64,000 nucleotides of DNA from positions 3,100,001-3,164,000 of the forward strand of contig CM038998.1 of NCBI GenBank assembly GCA_017499595.2, read 5' to 3'. Positions 1 to 50,218 of the stretch are shown one piece after another. Source of the DNA: Psilocybe cubensis. Its lineage: Eukaryota. The notes beneath the pieces are model-generated. The model did not search any database, was not told the DNA's origin, and was given only the letters and a program-made list of their open reading frames with translations. Every line of letters begins with the position of its first letter. Position 1 is the first letter of the stretch. The translations under genes were made by a program, and so were the position numbers.

Positions 1-2003
1 GATTTGATGACGGATTTGAGGTTGAAATGTTTGGGCTCGGCGTTGGGATTATCTGATGCAACCAGTAGCGCCAGTTCCTCTGCAGTTGCTTCCTGTTTTG
101 AAGATGCCTCTTCATTTTGAGCAGGCTTCGTTTTGCCTTTTTTCGTTTTCGGAGCGGGCTTGTCTTGGTCACTATCTGGCTCAAAGAATTCATCATCCAA
201 CACCTTTTCTTTCTCCTTTTCCTTTGGTTTGGCTTCCTTGAGCTCCTCCTTCCTCTTTTTCCTTTTCTCTCTCATTTTGCGCTGGTATTTCTCCAACGAA
301 GTCTCGTTTTCCTCATCCTTCTTTTCAGTCAGCCCTGGAGTAAAGGTAATTTCCATATCGACATCATCCTTCGCATCGTCGCCCCACCCTTCAGGCATGG
401 CCTCATCGTTGCCCCCCAAAAGGAGTGCGCGCAGCTTATCTCTCGAAGCCTTCTTGTCCTTCTTCTTCTTCTTGGGAGCTGTTGCTGCGTCTTCACCTTC
501 TGATTCGGACGAGGTGTTGGCGATGTACGCTCTGAAATCTGATTCTTCTATCTCTTTACGTGTTAGTGCTCGGCGGGTGATCTGGGTGCGCTCCGGATCG
601 TCCTCGTCCCATGTGAGCTTGACTTTGGAGTGCCGTAGAGCCTAGAGTGTTGGGTGAGCTGTATGTGAAAGATCATGAGCTTTTGATGGGTAGCGTACAT
701 CTGTGACGAATTCGACGGCTTTATATGTAGTGTTGAGTTCGTCCGTGGCTTCATCTCTGAGTTGACCCAAGTCAGTCGTAGGTTTATAAAGTCAGAAAAT
801 TAAATACCGGGGTTCATTTTCAAAAGTCATGTCGTCGGGTACAAAGCTCATATCAAAAACGTTTGCAGAACGTTCCAGCTCAGTCCCTTCGAGCTCGTTG
901 TAAATATGCGACGCAGCGTCCACAGTGTCGCATGTCACCACAGCATAATAATATCTAGCAGGTCCATTAACAAATTGTTTTACAACGTAAAATAAACGGC
1001 ACGCACCGTAGCCTTTCAAGCTGATACTTTCGCAACGCATCCTCGTCATACTCATCCTCGCCTCCAACTTCAAACACGGTCTTTTCATTGATTTCATCAA
1101 CGTCCAGATCCTTCTTTTTGAAAATCTCAGGTGGCGGGCCCTCTGTCTCCTCGCGCGCCATCCGCTCTTTTCCAAATTCGCTGGGGTACACACGGACACT
1201 GAGGACCTTGCCGCGGACGACGTTGACCTGCGCAGGGCCCTCGCCTCGCTTGCCCTTGCGGTCTTTCGTCCTCTCCGGCACCTTGGCGGCGGACGCGCGG
1301 ACGACGGGTGCGGTGGGCGAGACGAGGGACGCGCAGATTTTGTACAGGTGGCTCGCGCGGACGTGGTCCCAGTCGAGGTTGACTATCGCCAGTCGGCGCG
1401 ACCTTTGCCCGCCTGCGTCTTCGTTCTCGTCTTCGTCCTGGTGCGCTTTGGCGTAATTTGCGGCTTGCGCTTCGAGGTCTGCGAACGTGTCCTCGTCGAG
1501 GTCGATCTCTGCGTCTTCTTCTTCGTCGTCGTTTGGGACGGCTATAGGCCGCGAAGAGTCTCTGCCTAGCGTAACGAATCCATCATCCTCCTCCTCGTCC
1601 GAATCCTTTTCCTCTGCCTTTCCCTCCTCGTCCTCTTCGTCTGAAGACTCCAGGAGAACCTCTCCGCGTGCCAAATCAGGTTTTCTTGGTGCGCTCTCGG
1701 CATCTTCGTGTTGTTCAGCATCACGTTCGAGGCGGTAGAACCGTTTCAGGTCGTCCTGATCTTGCGTATCAGAGATGGGCCGCCCGTACTTGTCGACTTT
1801 GCGACCTGCTACACAGGACCCATCATGATCATATACATCAGCAAAGAGTATTGTCACACAACATGGTGGGACTGACCGGGCTTTTTCTTGTCCTTTTCGA
1901 AAACGCTCTTGAACCGCTCGTCGATGACAACTTTGTTGTTCTTGGTTTTGGGACGGCGGAAGCGGGGATCTGACTTGAGTCTTGCGAAACGGGGGTCGGA
2001 CAT
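1..2003 (-). CDS. ESF1: Pre-rRNA-processing protein ESF1 (multi-exon, runs off window start)
   Basis: ATG at 2003 gives MSDPRFARLKSDPRFRRPKTKNNKVVIDERFKSVF. Later exons read VDKYGR, RRLAIVNLDWDHVRASHLYKI, SVRVYPSEFGKERMAREETEGPP, LRKYQLERLR|YYYAVVTCD, ELERSANVFDMSFVPDDMTF and ALRHSKVKLTWDEDD, all ESF1-type motifs. Confidence 0.93.
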
Positions 2004-2202
2004 GATAACAGTCTTGAGAAAAAAAGGTGACGTCCAATCAGGACAACTTTTGACCTGACTACAAAACTTTAGATGGAGGTGGAAAGTAAAAATATGAAAT
2101 CACGTGTGTGCTATTATTGGACGGTTGTGTTGTCTGGAATTGGTGGTTGCAGGGCGACCATCAGTTGTCGAGAATGTTACATCAGTCCAAGGACAGATCT
2201 GT

Positions 2203-2319
2203 TATATAGCCTCCTCTTCTCACTCTCCCTTCTTTCCTTCCGTTTCCCTTTCTTTCCTTCCTGTAAGTCACTTTTGATTTTGCTCGTCTATGTACAGCTA
2301 ACACAGTTTTGTATCCTAG
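2203..2319 (+). promoter_or_regulatory. TATA-like box, pyrimidine-rich start region and 5'UTR intron of the KEP gene
   Basis: TATATA at 2203-2208 followed by a CT-rich tract; GTAAGT donor at 2263, GCTAAC branch point and TAG acceptor at 2319, upstream of ATG 2425. Confidence 0.55.
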
Positions 2320-2424
2320 TTCTTTCTTCGTTCTAGTAGCCCAGGCCGCAGGCGCGCCCTATCCGACTTGACCCATCTTGCAACTATTTTTTCCACTTTC
2401 GTTTTTATTTTCCCGTTATACGCC

Positions 2425-3388
2425 ATGCTTTCACGCGCCGCCCTGTTTTCTCTGTTTGTGGTTTTCCTGACCGGTCAGGTCATCGCGGCGCCCATGCCGA
2501 TGCCCGCAAAGGTGTGTAGTGATCGGGTTTTGATGGCATGGCATCTGACAGCGACTGCGATAGCTCTCGATGAGAGGGGTAGCCCAGCGCTCCCCTGAAC
2601 CACTGGAGACGATCGCTGTGTACCGCAGGGCAGTGAACACGATTCCTGCTGAGGAGGCGACCAAGGCGCCGGACGGTGTGATCCAGCCGTACAAGAGGGC
2701 TGTGAACACTATCCCTGCTGAGGAGGCGACCAAGGCACCCAATGGAGTGATCCAGCCATACAAGCGCGCTGTGAACACTATCCCAGCTGAGGAGGCGACC
2801 AAGGCGCCGAACGGAGTGATCCAGCCTTACAAGCGCGCCGTGAACACGATTCCTGCTGAAGAGGCTACCAAGGCGCCAAACGGAGTGATCCAGCCATACA
2901 AACGAGCCGTCAACACAATTCCCGCTGAAGAGGCTACCAAGGCACCGAATGGAGTGATTCAGCCATATAAACGAGCCGTCAACACGATCCCTGCCGAAGA
3001 GGCAACCAAGGCACCTAATGGAGTGATCCAGCCTTACAAGCGGGCAGTGAACACAATCCCTGCTGAAGAGGCAACGAAAGCACCCAACGGAGTGATCCAG
3101 CCGTACAAGCGGGCAGTGAACACGATCCCGGCCGAGGAGGCGACGAAAGCGCCAAATGGAGTGATCCAGCCTTACAAGCGTGCGATCAACACAATTCCTG
3201 AGGAAGAGGCAACAAAAGCACCGCAAGGGGTGTTGCAGCCATACAACAAGCGTGCTGTTAACACGGTGCCGGAGGAAGAGTCAACCAAGGCGCCGAATGG
3301 AGTGATCCAGCCGTACCGACGTGCCATTAACACGATCCCAGCTGAAGAAGCGACCAAGGCACCAGAGGGCGTGATTCAGCCATACTGA
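2425..3388 (+). CDS. Secreted Kex2-processed repeat protein (KEP) / multi-core peptide precursor, 303 aa
   Basis: Exon 1 (2425-2511) MLSRAALFSLFVVFLTGQVIAAPMPMPAK is a signal peptide. A phase-0 intron spans 2512-2563 (GTGTGT..CTGAC..TAG). Exon 2 (2564-3388) carries 11 repeats of AVNTIPAEEATKAPNGVIQPY separated by KR/RR. Confidence 0.92.
2630..3385 (+). repeat. Coding tandem repeat, 11 units, 69-bp period
   Basis: Units start at 2630, 2699, 2768, 2837, 2906, 2975, 3044, 3113, 3182, 3254 (unit 9 has one extra codon) and 3323. Confidence 0.95.
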
Positions 3389-3676: not shown

Positions 3677-4227
3677 ATGACCGAGTACGACTATTCGCCC
3701 GAGGCATACGAGCGCCATCTTGCCACTCAGAACAGGATAGCCAACTGGGTGCAGCACACAGAGCAGCACAGACCCCAGTTTGAGAATGCGCGCTCTCCCT
3801 CACCCCCGCAGCGCACTCGCCACCATCAACCCCCGCGCCCGCTGTACATCCACCCGCCATCCCCCGCGTCAGACTCTTCAGAGGGATACGCGCACCGCCC
3901 AGGGCCGATGCCTTTGAGCAGTCCCCCGATAATGATGTACCCGCCGCCGCCGCCGATGCTCATCCACCCATCCTACACCGCAGCGCCGCACCACAAGCCA
4001 TCGCACCACCGCCATCGCTCCCCCCACGCCCACTCGCGCTCCCACTCCCAGCAGTCTCCGCCGTACTACAGTCCCCCTGTCTCGCCAGGCTACCAGTACC
4101 CGTATCCCGCTGGAGGCTACTTTGTCGTCCAACGTGCTCCAGGACCGATGCCTGTCATGGTGAGTACTCCTTCTCTTTGCTCCACACCATCCTTTTCAAC
4201 CATCCTTTCTCCTAGTATCTCTCCTGA
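3677..4227 (+). CDS. Pro/His/Tyr-rich hypothetical protein (~164 aa)
   Basis: ATG 3677 gives MTEYDYSPEAYERHLATQNRIANWV followed by a low-complexity Pro/His tract. GTGAGT donor at 4160 and TAG acceptor at 4215 give a YLS* end. The 3' end is uncertain. Confidence 0.65.
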
Positions 4228-4863
4228 GCTGAATCGTCATCCAGTCCAACATCCCAGCTCCCCCCAACATCTCCTCCTTTTCCAGTGCCAGCACCGCCTA
4301 TTTCCAGCCAGCCACCTCTGCTGCATCCTCCCACTCCGCAGCCCACCTCTACCCGCCTCCCCTGCCCGGCCCGGACGCCTGGTCTTATGGCGCTGCATCC
4401 CCCTCGCACTCTGTCGTCTCGGGTTCTGTCCCTGCCCACTACTTTCCCCAGTATCAGGGAATACACTCCGCCATGGCCTCGCCTGCCTACTCTTCCCCTC
4501 AAGGCCTGCCTCAGTTGCACCAGCGGGTATACCATCTCCAGACACACCACTATCGACGAAGCGTCGGCTAGATCCTCGGCTCTCTCCCTGGGCGATTTTC
4601 TAAGACTCTTTTTCTGTTCTTCTTTCATGTCCGAATCGATCCCCTTTTTATTCTTTCATTTAGATAGATCATCATGAAGTCTTCCAAAAGGGCATCAGTC
4701 CCCAACTCGCATCGGACAATCTTGTCATCATTAGCATTACGTACCATAGACTGCATACATACCACTGTTGTACGATTACACTTCATTCAATCCAATAAGG
4801 CTCCCATCGCCTTTAACCTTGTCGTCTATAGATACATTTCAAAGATACACAAATCCTACAGTC

Positions 4864-13319: not shown

Positions 13320-14856
13320 TTAGGGCCAACCATCGAGATAGTCTCCAGGATGTATGTCTATGCTGTAGTTGGAGTCATCCGAGTGAAAGTCATCCTGGTA
13401 ATCTTCGAAGTCATCATCGTCGTCTTCCTCTCCCCATGCTTCCCATGTCTCGTTCAGTAATTGTGTTTGCAAAAAGTCACCTAGAAAGCCGTTCTCCTTA
13501 GACGGGGGCATAACGTGAGCTAAACTACTGCCCAGTAGTTCCTGTATCTGACATTCAAATTCCTGCCAATCACTTGCTTCGGGAGGAGATCTTAAGAAGA
13601 AAGGAAAGCGTAGGTTGGGTAAAGCAATAGGCTGGCTGAAGAATTGATAAAAAGATTGCGTCTGTAAATTCAGGGTGACGGACTTCAGGTTGGTGGTATT
13701 AAATATATATGGCAGACCTATCCGCAGTGTTGACAATAGATCCCCGCTGTGGAGATGCAAATCGGTGGTCGCCGGAAGGGATGACAGAATGGATAAACTG
13801 CCACTCCATATAACGTCGCTGTGAATATGCAGAGTTCGAAGATTGGATGATCTAGTTAACTCGTAGAAAATAGACTCGAGGTGTGCATCTATATGATTGG
13901 AGACATACGCGATTTCCAGATACTCGAGGTTGGGAGCGGACAAAAAGGGCAAGAAACAACTACACCCAGTCTCATGGCTGTCATCAATATTAACAGACAA
14001 AGACCGAAGCGACGAGGATGCGATCTTTTGTCTGCTGTCTTCCGGGACCGCGCCGTTCAGTGACCCACTAAATTGTCGAATGATGAGTGTCTCGAGCAAC
14101 CGGCAATTATCCACTAGAGCTCGAAGATCTTCCAACCCTTGGTTGAATTTGTCCACTCGCAAGAAAATTAGATTTGGTAATGGGTAAAATCCTTGAAACA
14201 GGAACTTCTCCACAATGAGAGATCTGAGGTTGCTCATGTCACTGAATGATGTAAGACCAAAGAAAAGATTGGAGTCGGATGGAATGTATGGGGATATAAT
14301 TTCCAAAGTCCTAAGCTGGGTCGCTTGTTTACCCTTCCATGCGCAAAGAATAGAAGTGGCTTCTTTTTCTGCCCAAGTTCTGATCTTCAAGCTTCGAATG
14401 CGTGATATGTTGGATGATATCGCATCTAGAACTTGCGATGGGGCGTCATATAGGTCATCGATCCAGTGAAAGTGGCTGCGGTCGTAAGAAACATCGACCA
14501 ATGCAGGAGCCGATCTCTCAAAGTATGTCGCAACATTATACCGAGGTTGAAGTGGTAATTGGATGGTCGTCCACAGAAGAGGGGAGTTCAGTATCAGACT
14601 ACGCCATTCTTTGCACACCGTAGACAAGATATCCTGAGGTAGCGTATAATTTTCTTCCAGACCCGTGGATCCATGTATATATAACTTGAAGATCTCTCGG
14701 AGCAAGTCGTCGGATAGGTTGTGTATGTATGATAAGGAGTTTTCATGCGGGGTATCAATTAAGCTCGAGTTTGCGTCAGACGTTGGGGAGTGATCCTTAT
14801 CTGTCTGTGAGATTTAATTGAAAGCATCATATCTCAATACATACGTTTATTTCCAT
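13320..14856 (-). CDS. F-box protein with degenerate LRR-like region and acidic tail
   Basis: YIHNLSDDLLREIF..ILSTVCKEWRSLILNSPLLWTTI is an agaricomycete-type F-box, followed by LxxLxI repeats. The start (MEIN plus a 40-nt intron) is tentative. Confidence 0.8.
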
Positions 14857-29560: not shown

Positions 29561-31744
29561 ATGGTCAAGGTAGGGCCACGTCTCCCCCCGCCAACTCGCA
29601 GAGAACTGGCGAGGCAAGAAAAAGAGGCAAAGCGCGCCGAGCAACTGGCCAACGGCATAGATCCTGCTCTCCTTGGCGAGCCACGGGAACACCTAGCATT
29701 GCTGATAGCTAAAAAGACGCGCTCCAAACGTCTTGAACCATCTGTTCTTGAACAATCCTGGAAGAAGTGGGAAAAGAACCAGAAGCGCGCCCACGCTAGA
29801 AGATTGGCAAAGTCTTTGAAGGAGAACATCAACTCAGAGGGGTAAAAATTTTCATCATCATCTATGATCCATTCTGTCCCCTTTTTGCTGATTTTCCTTC
29901 TATCACCCTCTTGTTGATCAGATCACAGGATTATGGGGATACATCTCAATCTGCGTCTTCCATCACCAATGAGAGCAACCAGGACCCTAAAGTGGAGACA
30001 ATCCGAGGTGATTCTGTCGATGCTCGCCTCCCTGATATGAATTCGACGGCTAGTGAGATGCACGGCATTCTAGTGAGCTCTCCTGCATGCCCCCTTGGCC
30101 CTGTTTCTAGTGAATTGTCCTCTTTGTCTTTGACTGGGACCAGTCTTTCTCTTTCGTCTTCCGAGTGTCGTGGTGTTCTAGATCCTGGTTCCAGTACATC
30201 TCTACTGCCCTATGCATCCAATACTCCTCTTCTGGGCGTCCAAATATCGACAGGCGACTTCTGGCCAGATAAAAATGCTGCTCCATCAAATCTGCTTGAT
30301 GACATGAAAGAAGCAAACGAATCTGCAAAGATAAAGGATATAACTCACTTACAAGGAACCCCAGAAAGAGGAAAGGTAAGAATTGCGCCCCTCATCACAT
30401 CATCATATAATTCATACCGCATATATGCAGTGTACCGATCCGCCCACAGTGTCTTCCCAGTGTCCTCTTAATACACTATCTCGGGTTTCGTCTCTTCGTA
30501 AATCACGAACAGTGATGAATGCAGCCTTAGCTCCTCCCCGTCTGACATCGCGTAAAGGTTCTGCTAGTTCTTTCATCTTCAGCGAGCCTTTGGATTCCTC
30601 TAAGTTTTCCTCAAAATCCTCTGTTTCTGCCAGTATAAACACTCAGCGGGGGGAATCTAGCGTTGTTGGTGGTTCTGAATCTGTTACACCGACTGTTGAG
30701 TCAATCCGTGGACTAAATTTGACGCCTCGAGCTAGAGTATCTGCATATGTTCGTCCAAGGTGCCCTGTGCTTGACGCGGATCAAACTATTTTGGCCGAGT
30801 CTAGAGGTCGAGACCGTGATGTCAATGACAAGGATACAACAAAGCTTACCACCTGGCAGCCCCCTGTTCCTCCTTCCAATGATACCCGCCCAGGGATCGA
30901 AAATACGTTTGGGACCATCGCCGCACCTGCGTCGTTGGCAAAGCAAGTTACGAAGAATGCCTATAATAATCACAATGACGTTTTGAACGTCGGGATTTTA
31001 TCAGGTGGTATCTCGCAACATACAAACCGGTATGCAGCATCTACACCCGAGGTTACTAGTGCCTTGGAGCCAAAACCTATTCAGGATCGTGTTTTGAAGG
31101 AACTATCCAATAATGCTCCAACCGACCAGGCTGAGTTACAACCAAATACCTACCAAAGTAATACCCAAACTCCAATTGTTAACGAAATTAAGCCGAAACT
31201 CGGTTCTTCGTGTTCCAACGTCATCAACGAAGGTTCTTCCAGCGTGCAGACTATGGATCAACCAAATGTCGTTGGCGCAGGTGGTGAACCTGTAGGCCCA
31301 GATACATCACGAACACCGGCCGTTCTTGCCCCAGCAGCCTGCATCGTTCAAGATAAGAAACCCAAACCCATCAAAAAAGACGAAGTGGTTGAGACGCAGA
31401 GGAGTCAGCGCAGGAGCTTTTTCAATATTCAGCCAGTTCTTAGGTCTATGTTACGACCTGCTGCCCGCGACAACGGAAGTGAGCAGCCCACTGCCTCTGG
31501 AAAATATCCGGATACACCTTTGAGTTCTTGGTCTGGAATTGTCCCACCGGTGCCCACGCCTGCCACAAGGTCCCCTCTTATCTTTGCTATGGGTCTTCCC
31601 AGTCCGCCCTGGTCGCGTTCGAACGTTCTGCCTCGCCACGTAGCGGACACAAATCCGGAGGCAGGGACCTCACGAGGATTTGTATGTGCCTTGAAATGGG
31701 TATTGAGAAAAACATTTGGGTATTTCTGGCAAAAAAGAGGATGA
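29561..31744 (+). CDS. Hypothetical low-complexity protein (basic N-terminus, Ser/Pro/Thr-rich body)
   Basis: Three long consecutive ORFs (29558-29845, 29911-30471, 30383-31744) can be joined by GT-AG introns; no recognisable domain. Confidence 0.55.
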
Positions 31745-31975: not shown

Positions 31976-33740
31976 ATGTTTTTCTCTTATTTTCGTCGAC
32001 CAGCGGCCGTTCTACCTTTTCTTACCCTCATCAACGCATTCACCTTTACTTTTTCTGAGCCTTCAGAATGCGATGACCTCAATTTGACATGGACAGGCGA
32101 GTAAATTAACGAATCAGTCGAAACCATGCATTCTAAACTGATCTTACCAGGTGGAACACCGCCATTTACACTTAACTTGATTCCTGTATGTCTTTCAACT
32201 CCGGAGGCGCTTAGTGCATGCATTCATTTGAATCAAGGTCTTTGGGACTCCTCGCAATGTGTCAATACCATCTTCTGCATACAATGATGGAAAGGGCTCA
32301 TTTTCTTATCAACTTCCGTTCGACAATCAAACACAATTGGCGATTATGATGTCGGATTCCACTGGATTCAATGCGGGAGGCGTTTCCGAACTGCAGTCAG
32401 TTCGACCGTCGAATGGACGGAGTTGCAATACCACAGAGCCGAGTAAGTCAGCCTATGACTTTGTTGACCAGGTTTACTGACCTTACTCAAGGGGTGGATT
32501 TCTCTTTCCAGTTGAATACAGCTCTGCAACAATGCAGGTAATCTACTCATACATTCCATTCGCATATCAAATTCTGCGATTCACAATTCTTTCTTAGACC
32601 ATACCTGATCGAAGCATACACACAAGCAGTACAGCCTGTTACAATATACGTAAGTACACGACGATCGCGCTCGGTTTGTTTCTTGTCTAACATTGCATCG
32701 ACCAGGTTATCGTCCCCGGCGGGAGTGTGACTACGCTAAAGCCTCCAACAGGGCCCACCTCATTCACTTGGAATGCCAATGCTGCTCGTGGAACGTCCAT
32801 GATGTTCATGCTGGTTGATGCCCAGGGACGTCAAGGTGGGAGCTCCGATATTATTCCTGTCGGGGTATCCGACGACACTAGTTGCCTCAATGCTTCCTCG
32901 CCGTCCACGACATCAAATCCCCCATTTTCAACCTCTACATCGTCTTCCTCTCCTTCATCCACCTCGGGATCCAAGAGCGGAATATCTATCGCTGCTGTTG
33001 CAGGGACAGTTATTGGAGCCCTCATTTTTTTGTCTGTTACAGTAACCCTTGGACTCTTTTTTCTTAGGAGAAAGCAAGAAAAGGCTAACCTTGGCTTCTC
33101 TGATAATAAGCCGAGTCGGCCACCAAGGATGGGATCTGGAACTGATCTACCTTACGATTCCAACCATGGGTCTGGTGTGCTGCACAGCGGTGGTATTCTA
33201 CCAAGCAACTTGCCACCTTTATCTCCATATCCTTATTCACCCAATTCTAGCATTCCACAGAGTTCTAATCCTTTCTTGGATTCTCACTCAGGCGGACCAA
33301 ACACTGCATCATCGCACAATTTACTTTTACCCTCAGGGCAATATCAACCCAGTCCTTTCGATGCATCCAGCGAATATTTGCCTCGTCCTCCCCATATACA
33401 AGGGTATCTCGACCAGTCGCCTTTGGAACCAAACAAGTCATCCTCTCCCTCTAAACCCCCTGGAATTGAACCCGAAACCTATTTAATGCAAACCAGGCCC
33501 CCGTCTTCAATACCAGAGACGATTTCAACATCACGAAAGGCTGCACTTGCAGCAGCAGCGTCAAACCAGAGACCAACAAGGTTTATTGTCCATACAGATG
33601 TTGAAGATGACATTCCTCCTCCCAATGCAGACGGCATTGTTGAGCTTCCTCCGCAATATAGTGAGCGGCGCGGTGCGCCTAGCTCTGCCATTCATCCACC
33701 AGAGCAGGCCGGTCCTCCTCCTGGTACATACCCTCTATGA
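31976..33740 (+). CDS. Type I membrane protein A (signal peptide, Cys-containing ectodomain, S/T stalk, TM, PPxY tail)
   Basis: MFFSYFRRPAAVLPFLTLINAFTFTFSEPSECDDLNLTWT|GGTPPFTLNLIP|..; TM IAAVAGTVIGALIFLSVTVTLGLFFLRRK; tail FIVHTDVED..ELPPQYSE. Confidence 0.8.
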
Positions 33741-35412: not shown

Positions 35413-37068
35413 ATGTTCTTTGTTGCAAGGTGGGGGAGCGCGGTCTATCTGAGCGCCTTCCTGGTTCCGCTCGTCGTCAATGCTTTCAATTTTACGAATA
35501 CCAATCCAACGCAATGTGATGATTTAACGATCCAGTGGACAGGTACGAAAAACTCATTCTGAGAGCTTTATGAACTCACAAATGCTTACACCAAAATTCT
35601 GACCATGCAGGAGGTCAACCACCTTTCAATTTGTTAGTGATTCCTGTGCGTAGCGGCCCTCAATGTGTTCAAATTGTGGAAATAACAGTCTAGATGATAG
35701 CCTGGACAAATTTTGCGCAATATAACGATACCCCCGGCCGCGTTTGCAAACAATGCTGGGACGTTCACGACACAGCTTGCACTTGCTGAACATCAGCGCG
35801 TACTTTTCGCTCTATCAGACGCCACTGGTGTTACTGCTGGGGGGACGTCTGCTTTGTTTGACGTAGGTGCATCAATCAGCGGTGCACAATGCAATACGAC
35901 GAGTCCTAGTGTGTACCTATACGTGCATCAGTGCTGATCACTCACCTTCTCATATTAGCTGCGGATTTTTTCTTCTCTACGGACAATGACCTGTTCCAGT
36001 GCCAGTAAGTGCGCCCTGCTACCACTTGGTCTGAGGTTCTCATGGTCGTTAATTTCTTCTTTTGCATCCAGACCTTTTCCTTTCAGCCAATATCCCAACG
36101 CGGTCCAGCCCGTTACTATAATTGTGAGTCATAAATAATAAATAATCGATTATGGATTGGATTAACCGGATGTATAGGGATTTATACCTCAGAGCCCACC
36201 ATTGATTTTCCATCCTCCCATCGGGGACTCCTTTTCATGGAATCCAGTAAATCTCACTGCGGGGACATCTATCGCTTTCTACATGACAGATTCGCAGGGA
36301 CGGAACGGAGGAATCGCGAACATCGAAGTAATTCGCCTTTCTAATGATCAATCTTGTTTGACGACGGCATCGTCGTCAGGAAACCCTCTACCGACTGGAA
36401 CGCTTCAGCCTGACTCCACCAGAGTACCGAGTTCGCATACCCCCCTTGTTGCAGGCGTTGTGGCCGGGGCTGCGGCTCTCATCCTTGTGTTGGCTTTTGC
36501 GCTATTCTGCGTCAGACGTCGCCGCAATCAAGGCCCGACGGAGAAAAGAAGCTCCAGGAAACCAATTGATCCTGTATACGAGCATGCAGGGTCCCCTGCG
36601 CCCGAAGGGGCTTCTTACTTGATGATCCCTACTCAGTATACGGTCACGCCTCTGTCTGAAGCAGAGACTATGAGTGCACGTTCGAGAAAGCGACAAATGA
36701 TGCTAGAGGATAGAGCAGAAAATCAGTCTTTCCCTTCTGACACATCTCGAATTCAGTCAATGACACAGTATCCTCCAAGCACACCAGGTCCATCATCACA
36801 GTTCGGTACATCTGGTCATAGCATTCTCAGCGGTTATTCTTCTATGGTTGCAACATCGCCGGACTCCGATCCTCGCAGTCAATACAAACCTTCACCACGT
36901 TTAATAATACATACAGATATTGCAGAATCGAGCGCGGAGCCTTTGGAGCTCCCACCACAATATTCAGAAGGACGTATGCCTATCCCCGGTATGGTGACAT
37001 CTGAAGAACCAGATACCACATTATCACAAAATTCAAGCTCGAGACCGGGAAAAAACTTTAGGTCGTAG
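35413..37068 (+). CDS. Type I membrane protein B, tandem paralog of 31976-33740
   Basis: MFFVARWGSAVYLSAFLVPLVVNAFNFTNTNPTQCDDLTIQWT|GGQPPFNLLVIP|..; TM LVAGVVAGAAALILVLAFALFCVRRRR; tail LIIHTDIAE..ELPPQYSE; intron positions match gene A. Confidence 0.8.
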
Positions 37069-47815: not shown

Positions 47816-50218
47816 TTATCTCGGGGCCTTGATTTCCTCCGGGTGGCTGTCCCATAGCCGGGTCTGTCGCCGTCGAATAGGAGACCCGATCTGTTCTTCT
47901 GCTATCGTCCTGACACTCTTCCTGACGTATTTATGGTGTGAAGTATCCCGATCAGTGTCTTCTTCCATGGTGTTTTCAACCACAGCGTTCAAATTATGTG
48001 ATGGGAAGAAATTCTCCAAATGCGTAAGCACCTCTTTGACGCCGGGCCTTGTGTCGCCAAGATTTCTCTGAGAGTGTCTGGAGAGTGGAATAACACGTAG
48101 TGGTTGTGAAGTTCGGTATTGCTCTTGTCTCTCACCAGAATTTTTTCTTGAGATGGGCAAATCGGCAGGAGGTTTTTTCCAGGTTGAAGATGTGCTGAGC
48201 GTGCTGTTCGTGTCGCTGAACGTATCGTTCTCGTTATTCTTGACAAAATTCAAATCCGTCGGAAAGGCTTGCGAAGACGATGATGGAGCAGACAAATCAT
48301 TTTGTGAAGGCATGATTGCCTTACTTGTGCTTCCCGTATTATTAAAGGGAGGATATCGGTTTGGAGCCAAAGGTGCAAGATTGTTCGAATAAGGTGTCTT
48401 TTCTATTGGTGGGAGCGGTGGCGGCTCATATCTGAAAGGTGGTGGTTGGTTATTTTCACGCTGTTTTTCCTTTCGCCGCCGAGATGTGTCCTGTGGGTCA
48501 TCATCGTCTGGGTTGTAAACAACCAGGCGAGCTTTTCGGGTAAACGATTGGTTGGATCTCTGGCTTTCTGAAGATTCAGACGCTGTAGAAGTCCGTTTGG
48601 CGCGTGTCATTGAGTCGTCCGACCGATGCATTCTATCTTTTCGTGGACCCGGAGGCTCAATTGTAACTATCGGTGGGCTGGGGAGCCTAGGAGGAGCTAT
48701 CACAGGGGGATTGTGTGGTTGGCGAGACGAAAGATTTGGATGTGAATTCCCTAAATTCACTGGTACGACAGGGGACGGCGCTCGAATCGTAGGTTCACGG
48801 GGATCTGCGATGAAAGTTTTCTCCTTAAGGTCTGCAAATTCAGTGATATCATCATGACTTTTGTTGAGAGGTTTATAGCCCAGATACTGCATCCCCGGGA
48901 ATGACCAATCTGAAGGGAGTTCAAGATATGCATGGTTCAGGAGCGCAGAGGCCGAAGAACGCTTTGCCGGTTCACTATTGAACACTATAGTTAAATGATG
49001 TATTTACGAGAGAAGGAAAGGCGCAGCGCACGGTTGAAAGCATTCGTTCCTAAATTTCTTCGCAGCATCTGATAAATGACAGTCTTTAGGGAGTGGAGGC
49101 GCGCTTTTCTCATTTATCAACTATATGCGTTTGTCATTACGGGGGAGGAAATAACAGTCACAAATTCAGAAATAGCCAACCTTCATCAATACAGGCAAAA
49201 GTTCCTGACCGAACCATGGTCTGTTTCCGGTCCACATTTCTATAACGATGCATCCTACACTCCATATGTCTACCTTGGTGGTGTACCCATCCTCTGATGA
49301 AATAGCTTCTGGTGCCATCCAGAAAGAAGTACCCTTCATCGAAGAAAAAGCACGGTCAATTTCCTGGAGTTTCTTTGAAATGCCAAAGTCGGAGATTTTG
49401 CAGATTCCGGTCTCTTCGACGAGAATGTTGTCTGATTTCAGGTCCTGTATGTCAGTTCAGCTTTTGAATTCAAAGTAGACGATCTGTGACTTCACTCGAT
49501 GGATGATACCCTTAAGGTGTAGGTACGAAAGACCTTCCAGAATTTGGCTAGTAAAATATTTGGTGACTTCTTCTTTGAACTTTCCACACTTGCGCAAAGA
49601 ACTGCCAATAGTTCCGCCAGAGACATACTGCAAGAATCTACGATAAAGCAATTTTAAGTGTGCAGGAATGTATGTCCAACTTTCTCAATACACACATGTT
49701 CAGAGTTTCCAGGTTTTCTTCAAAGCCAAGATATTGAACGATATTATCATGGTCGAGATCTTGCAACGTTTCTCGTTCATCCTTGAGCGCCTCAACGATT
49801 GTCTTCATGTCTGTCTTCATTCTATCGCTCGCCGTCTGCGGTAGTTCAACCTGTTTGACGGCCATGACCTCTCCAGTGGTAGCATTGAATCCCATATACA
49901 CCCTTCCATGGCTTCCACTGCCTATCAATTCACCTTTCATCCATCGGATTTTTGCTGATCAAGAATAGTATATACATTAGCACGTTGTCAAGACTGCATT
50001 AGAATAATAAGGTCACCTTTGGGACGCTCTTTATGGCTTTCTTTGGGTAGTCGTCTGGTGGCTTGACGGCTTGTCTCCGCTCTTGGTGCCGCATTGAGTC
50101 GACGAACTGGGGTCGACGAAGAACCATGGGGATCAAAAAAGTATTCTTCAAGACTTTGCTTATAAGTTACAGTACGAGGGGGCCGGAATTTGGGCGCGCC
50201 TGAAGGATTGCTCTGCAT
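47816..50218 (-). CDS. STE11/Bck1-like MAPKKK-family kinase with short N-terminus and long C-terminal tail
   Basis: RWMKGELIGSGSHGRVYMGFNATTGEVMAVKQVELP, HR|DLKSDNILV..DFGISKK, MKGTSFWMAPE and KVDIWSVGC; catalytic motifs intact. Confidence 0.85.

Follow-up and report, generated by a model that had tools for sequence, protein, structure and literature searches.

Eleven tandem peptide units in a Psilocybe cubensis precursor that groups by sequence with the Coprinopsis cinerea KEP 497993 family

The closest described system to the locus analysed here is KEP 497993 of Coprinopsis cinerea, for which LC-MS/MS against synthetic standards revealed pyro-QIPAELPTKSINGNIEPY, its +K form and pyro-QVPVDEPA; the knockout no longer yielded these peptides (Vogt et al. 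2022, PMC9769878). According to that report, the precursor is highly transcribed, the peptides are linear with pyroglutamate as the only modification, and cleavage at dibasic sites was seen both natively and in Pichia. In C. cinerea the peptides persisted in single kex knockouts, a result attributed by the authors to redundancy. No growth or fruiting phenotype is reported there for the KEP 497993 knockout, and no antibacterial activity for the synthetic peptides (PMC9769878). KEP 497993 is described as strongly conserved; 13 or more homologues are counted, among them those of Lentinula edodes, Pleurotus, Hypsizygus and Panaeolus (PMC9769878). In Umemura 2020, type G-1/P-2 (type number 7) is given as the most widespread KEP type (PMC7329392, Table 2), with 64 KEPs from 62 strains and 49 genera, nearly all of them Basidiomycota with about one copy per strain. 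The type is described as Tyr-rich, with a DUF3328 gene within 15 genes in 0 of the 64 cases, and its genera include Termitomyces, Fibroporia, Coprinopsis, Pleurotus, Hypsizygus and Panaeolus (PMC7329392).

Here we describe a KEP gene of Psilocybe cubensis that lies in a 64-kb window, the whole stretch of DNA that was analysed. It shares with yeast prepro-alpha-factor the Kex2/Kex1 logic and the many copies from one precursor, and with the dikaritin precursors (ustiloxin, phomopsin, asperipin) the KEP architecture and a Tyr in the core. An earlier note on this DNA had recognized the architecture and had described the peptide as one that could not be matched to a characterised product. The architecture is right, while the claim of novelty is not: by sequence the gene falls in the family of KEP 497993, whose peptides were detected by mass spectrometry as reported in PMC9769878, and a new kind of system is not revealed.

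Gene structure and transcript evidence

The gene, its 5' region and its left neighbour comprise the following features.

970-2037, minus strand: first large exon of a divergent ESF1-like gene (Pfam RRM_ESF1, E 1.2e-23)
2100-2262, plus strand: 5' untranslated exon, covered by contigs of runs X9 and X10; its start lies at or left of 2100
2263-2319, plus strand: 5' UTR intron of 57 nt, GT..AG; joint in X9 and X10, absent in DNA run X2
2320-2424, plus strand: second part of the 5' UTR, covered by spliced contigs
2425-2487, plus strand: putative signal peptide (residues 1-21, reading MLSR / AALFSLFVVFLTG / QVIA); cleavage predicted between VIA and AP
2488-2511, plus strand: start of the pro-region (APMPMPAK) and end of exon 1; PxPMP element shared with the family consensus of 24 aligned sequences
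2512-2563, plus strand: coding-region intron of 52 nt, GT..AG; spliced out in a contig of X9 and in one of X10, not in X2
2564-2629, plus strand: remaining pro-region (LSMRGVAQRSPEPLETIAVYRR) to the first dibasic site; aligns with the family element RxPxPLETIPxYxKR
2630-3385, plus strand: 11 peptide units with cores of 21-22 aa and KR or RR after ten of them; from translation, tandem repeat and unit HMM
3386-3388, plus strand: TGA stop directly after the Tyr of the last unit, from sequence reading

Translation of the spliced exons (2425-2511 and 2564-3388 on the plus strand) gives a precursor of 303 aa, in which a putative signal peptide, a pro-region and 11 units bounded by KR or RR follow one another. 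Exon 1 encodes MLSRAALFSLFVVFLTGQVIAAPMPMPAK, and exon 2 encodes the pro-region part LSMRGVAQRSPEPLETIAVYRR, the 11 units and the stop; the intron between them has a ctgac branch-like site in addition to its GT..AG ends. The signal-like N-terminus, MLSRAALFSLFVVFLTGQVIA, is followed by a pro-region consisting of APMPMPAK and LSMRGVAQRSPEPLETIAVYRR. By eye, this N-terminus shows a single basic residue and a hydrophobic core of 13 residues, with V in position -3 and A in position -1; the signal peptide call combines this reading with the conservation of the N-terminus in the family. Units 2 to 8, seven of the eleven, are identical (AVNTIPAEEATKAPNGVIQPY plus KR). Unit 1 carries N15D; unit 9 is a 22-mer ending in YN that also carries V2I, A7E, N15Q and I18L; unit 10 carries I5V, A7E and A10S and is followed by RR; and unit 11, with V2I and N15E, ends at the TGA. 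A KR or RR pair stands at all ten internal unit boundaries and at the pro-region boundary, and Tandem Repeats Finder described the repeat with a period of 69, 10.9 copies, 81% matches and a score of 782. All elements on which the KEP architecture had been based, namely a signal-like N-terminus, a pro-region, dibasic-bounded repeats and a last unit at the stop, can thus be read in the sequence. The variants listed earlier are also present, with seven identical units, D, Q or E in place of N and a 22-mer ending in YN; that list was slightly simplified, as units 9-11 carry further substitutions. The AlphaFold2 model of the precursor (pLDDT 52, pTM 0.18) contains zero secondary-structure elements, a low confidence that is consistent with disorder.

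The region 2100-2720 was compared with contigs of four sequencing runs. Contigs of X9 and X10, two samples of one study, join 2509 to 2562, which with the cut shifted by +2 corresponds to 2511/2564 and leaves an intron bounded by GT..AG. The DNA run X2 passes through both intron sites without a break. The intron at 2512-2563, which had been proposed for checking by RNA-seq, is precisely the segment removed. In the 5' UTR, X9 and X10 show a joint from 2262 to 2337 with 14 letters between that equal 2320-2333, from which follow an intron at 2263-2319 and a 3-nt TAG difference at 2334-2336. X12 (another organism, small share) covers only 2660-2720, a piece of the repeat, and is uninformative. Exon 1 is independently backed by the N-terminus of the Agrocybe chaxingu protein P0067, with 20 of 32 residues identical (E 6e-11). 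These data demonstrate the structure and the splicing of the gene, and we conclude that it is real and expressed in P. cubensis, where the RNA kind of X9 and X10 is a guess supported by their spliced joints.

The spliced contigs extend left of 2100 into the divergent ESF1-like gene, and because they run on into that gene, the start of the KEP transcript cannot be read from them. The 5' regions of the two genes may overlap, or the assembler may have merged both genes. Compared with the window, the 5' UTR of the RNA-like contigs has lost the TAG at 2334-2336, and X9 alone has a TTT insertion at 2386; these look like strain differences.

Selection on the repeated peptide

The seven identical units differ at 18 of their 69 nucleotide columns, and every variable column is a codon position 3 of the plus frame. 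At least 28 substitutions have occurred among these units, all of them synonymous. Silent changes make up 51 of the 207 possible single changes (24.6%), and the chance that all would be silent is about 0.246^28, or roughly 1e-17, in a simple independence calculation. Since all of these substitutions are silent, the peptide sequence itself is the target of strong selection. The mean nucleotide identity among the seven units is 0.847, with a mean of 10.6 synonymous differences per 17.2 synonymous sites, and this silent divergence among identical units indicates that the copies are old and that the peptide sequence has been conserved. Across the nine units of 23 codons, 349 synonymous codon differences stand against 40 nonsynonymous ones. 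The restriction of variation to position 3 also fixes the coding strand and frame; an antisense open frame at 2483-3280 is a by-product of the repeat. The locus is an unusually clean case in which selection sees the peptide sequence, every substitution among seven copies being silent.

Family members and the relationship to KEP 497993

The single-sequence search yielded an Amanita thiersii protein (E 2.2e-35), and the representative search returned 115 proteins at E<=1e-3, 30 of them at E<=1e-10. A unit HMM, iterated once, found 304 units in 88 of 129 collected proteins; the family is widespread among agaricomycetes. The unit consensus is (T/N)IP(A/E)Ex(A/P)(T/V)K(A/S)P(N/D)GxIxPY, and P. cubensis has the majority residue at nearly all positions. 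In the motif IPxE...K..NG.I.PY, 235 distinct units have P in 92%, E in 78% and G in 87% of cases. With 11 units, P. cubensis has the most among the 88 family proteins, the next having 9 and 8, and in certain members the units are set apart by spacers or lack a dibasic pair between them. The named members come from Amanita thiersii, Termitomyces, Macrolepiota, Hymenopellis, Agrocybe, Lentinula (3 species), Desarmillaria, Mycena, Fibroporia, Somion, Hermanssonia and Phlebia, that is, from Agaricales and Polyporales, plus one ascomycete.

The ascomycete protein, P0128 of a Naviculisporaceae sp. (Ascomycota), has 103 aa and contains three QIPAEVP...G..(I/V)PF units bounded by RR or KR; by these units the family extends beyond Basidiomycota. 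Type G-1/P-2 likewise has one ascomycete genus in the published table, and Psilocybe, Amanita and Lentinula are absent from its printed genus list (PMC7329392). On the overlap of these genus lists, the P. cubensis KEP family is probably G-1/P-2.

Several candidates were set aside. Long matches such as P0009 (1951 aa) are K/S/N-rich low-complexity proteins, none of which was matched by the unit HMM, and Pfam hits to DUF6884, ApeP-like and HVO_B0008_N on the repeat protein proved to be summed repeat noise, with 0 stretches passing alone. The best scores in the ESM Atlas, 0.78 and 0.76, were below lead level. The single-sequence and representative searches of the protein collections returned no P. 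cubensis protein matching the KEP gene, and the unspliced ORF at 2570-3385 had no exact match in the protein collection; the gene may be unannotated or modelled differently in public collections.

Conservation was also found upstream of the units. A 24-sequence alignment gave the prepro-region consensus MFSR...GQVxAxPxPMP...RxPxPLETIPxYxKR, and the recognition of this region as a family feature is a finding of the present analysis that goes beyond the account in PMC9769878. The X-Pro dipeptides pointed out earlier are present in the sequence, but they belong to this family-wide conserved prepro-region and do not follow Kex2 sites. In its degree of conservation, the pro-region element PLETIPxYxKR (2564-2629) roughly equals the core; it looks like a shorter version of a unit and might be released as a separate peptide.

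The link to C. cinerea was drawn through the printed peptide and intermediate homologues. In our own comparisons, the P. cubensis unit is identical to the published C. cinerea peptide at 11 of 17 positions over IPAE...PY, and one unit of the Termitomyces protein P0027, which matches the P. cubensis query with E 3.4e-13, differs from the C. cinerea peptide at 2 of 18. None of the single-sequence, representative and profile searches returned the C. cinerea protein itself; the first and last of these scored the approximately 8000 candidates sharing most words. Lentinula edodes, named as having a KEP 497993 homologue in PMC9769878, was also matched in the present searches. Both precursors consist of a signal peptide, putative in P. 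cubensis, a pro-region and repeated cores bounded by dibasic sites, share the core motif IPAE..TK..NG.I.PY and have no modifying enzyme nearby, in P. cubensis as judged from the ORFs of at least 100 aa in the window. Compared with C. cinerea, the P. cubensis unit has a 4-residue N-terminal extension, AVNT, and its Tyr is followed directly by KR without a spacer; moreover, P. cubensis has 11 units, 7 of them identical. The P. cubensis units begin with Ala, whereas the C. cinerea peptide begins with Gln, so that a pyroglutamate cap is impossible in P. cubensis. Judged by these sequence comparisons, the P. cubensis gene belongs with KEP 497993 in one conserved agaricomycete family.

The exact unit and three of its sub-strings were absent from the literature searched. 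By title or abstract, none of the publications listed for Psilocybe and KEX2 concerned the P. cubensis KEP gene, and in one publication found for Psilocybe cubensis and RiPP the matches were to the surname Ripple. The sections of Le Marquer 2019 that were consulted make no mention of the unit motif, the available text of the fruiting-body review PMC10282164 contains no relevant KEP passage, and PMC11455885, in its available part, only cites KEP papers.

Neighbourhood, processing and possible role

Within the window, 155 stop-to-stop ORFs with a length of 100 aa or more were compared with Pfam, 20 of them also individually. The families found were ESF1, RPL4, Rad51, HisHF, RPS9, cytochrome b5, Pal1, Tim17, Nup133, TAF5, RPL13e, mitochondrial carrier, ferric reductase, kinase and desaturase, which are housekeeping and unrelated families only. 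The HisHF ORF shows 100% identity to a P. cubensis protein and 87% to its P. cyanescens counterpart, which assigns the window to P. cubensis. To the right of the KEP gene lies the following feature.

3677-4600, plus strand: proline-rich gene starting MTEYDYSPEAYER; no Pfam match, matches the C-terminal half of A. thiersii P0003 (E 3e-18)

This ORF is proline- and histidine-rich with a conserved N-terminus. The public model of A. thiersii P0003 (405 aa) runs the KEP gene and its downstream neighbour (MTEYDYSPEAYER...) together, which looks like an annotation error; since that neighbour matches 3677-4600 of the window, the gene order is conserved. Five long open frames of 296-497 aa had no Pfam match at E<=1e-5.

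13323-14813, minus strand: long open frame without Pfam match
30380-31741, plus strand: long open frame without Pfam match
47819-49003, minus strand: long open frame without Pfam match
32691-33737, plus strand: long open frame without Pfam match
36178-37065, plus strand: long open frame without Pfam match

We consider it highly probable that the gene is the P. cubensis orthologue of the conserved agaricomycete KEP represented by KEP 497993 and that its product is cut in the Kex2-/Kex1-type manner to linear peptides; for P. cubensis itself, signal cleavage, Kex2/Kex1 processing, secretion and linearity are what we infer. The 303-aa precursor would enter the ER via its signal peptide, with a predicted cut between VIA and AP. 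In the Golgi, Kex2-type proteases would cut after the final RR of the pro-region and after each inter-unit KR or RR, and a Kex1-type carboxypeptidase would trim the trailing basic residues, which the last unit would not require. About 11 linear peptides, each 21-22 residues long, would result, among them seven copies of AVNTIPAEEATKAPNGVIQPY; further modification is not expected, and with eleven copies per precursor one selected peptide would be made in high molar amount.

The conserved Pro-Tyr at every unit end and the reported association of Tyr-rich cores with UstYa-dependent products (PMC7329392) would also fit a RiPP precursor with cores that undergo additional modification, such as dikaritin-like Tyr macrocyclisation, by enzymes encoded elsewhere in the genome, all the more as the window holds only one flank of the gene. 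Against this, none of the 155 ORFs of at least 100 aa encodes UstYa/DUF3328, a tyrosinase or a prolyl oligopeptidase, as had been stated earlier for this window, nor a P450 or methyltransferase family, in a scan that reaches 2.4 kb to the left of the gene and leaves short exons outside. In addition, the peptides of the C. cinerea homologue are reported as linear with only pyroglutamate (PMC9769878), and G-1/P-2, probably the same family, has 0 of 64 members near DUF3328 in the published table (PMC7329392). The cores are also of 21 aa, compared with 4-6 in dikaritins. A modified product is therefore improbable.

Somewhat less probable still is that the gene encodes an intact secreted or wall-bound disordered repeat protein which is not cut and in which the KR pairs are merely part of the repeat. 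The disordered AlphaFold2 model and the spacers or missing dibasic pairs in certain family members would agree with this, as would the fact that peptide release in P. cubensis is deduced by analogy. However, the dibasic pairs stand at all 10 internal boundaries and at the pro-region boundary with the last unit ending at the stop, and the C. cinerea homologue is reported to be cut at exactly such sites, natively and in Pichia (PMC9769878). An alpha-factor-like mating pheromone precursor, which would share the overall architecture of prepro-alpha-factor and recall the Basidiomycota KEPs with alpha-pheromone features reported in PMC6339444, is hardly credible, as the repeat protein has no sequence similarity to it and no MF_alpha Pfam match at E<=1, its units begin with A-V-N-T without the Ste13-type X-Ala/X-Pro dipeptides after the dibasic sites, its cores are longer and have no mating link, the KEP 497993 knockout is reported to have fruited normally (PMC9769878), and basidiomycete mating is described as using lipopeptide pheromones (PMC6339444).

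With Kex2-/Kex1-type release of linear peptides as the preferred reading, the peptide most likely acts outside the cell, as a signal or in the interaction with other organisms, and not in axenic growth, for which it may, by analogy with C. cinerea, be dispensable. A bolder proposal, which we regard as speculative and on balance unlikely, is that the family peptide is a conserved hormone- or quorum-like extracellular signal of mushroom-forming fungi with a dedicated receptor, amplified to eleven copies in P. cubensis. Under such a signalling role, the seven exact copies and the near-saturated synonymous sites would point to a tight sequence-specific partner and not to a bulk or surface role, and the pro-peptide (PLETIPxY), which is conserved to the same degree, might be a further bioactive product. 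Among the KEP-derived peptides of mushrooms, the KEP 497993 family is the most conserved. With its selection signal and the highest copy number seen here, the P. cubensis gene, in a species that can be cultivated, would be a good subject for peptidomics, synthetic-peptide or receptor work.
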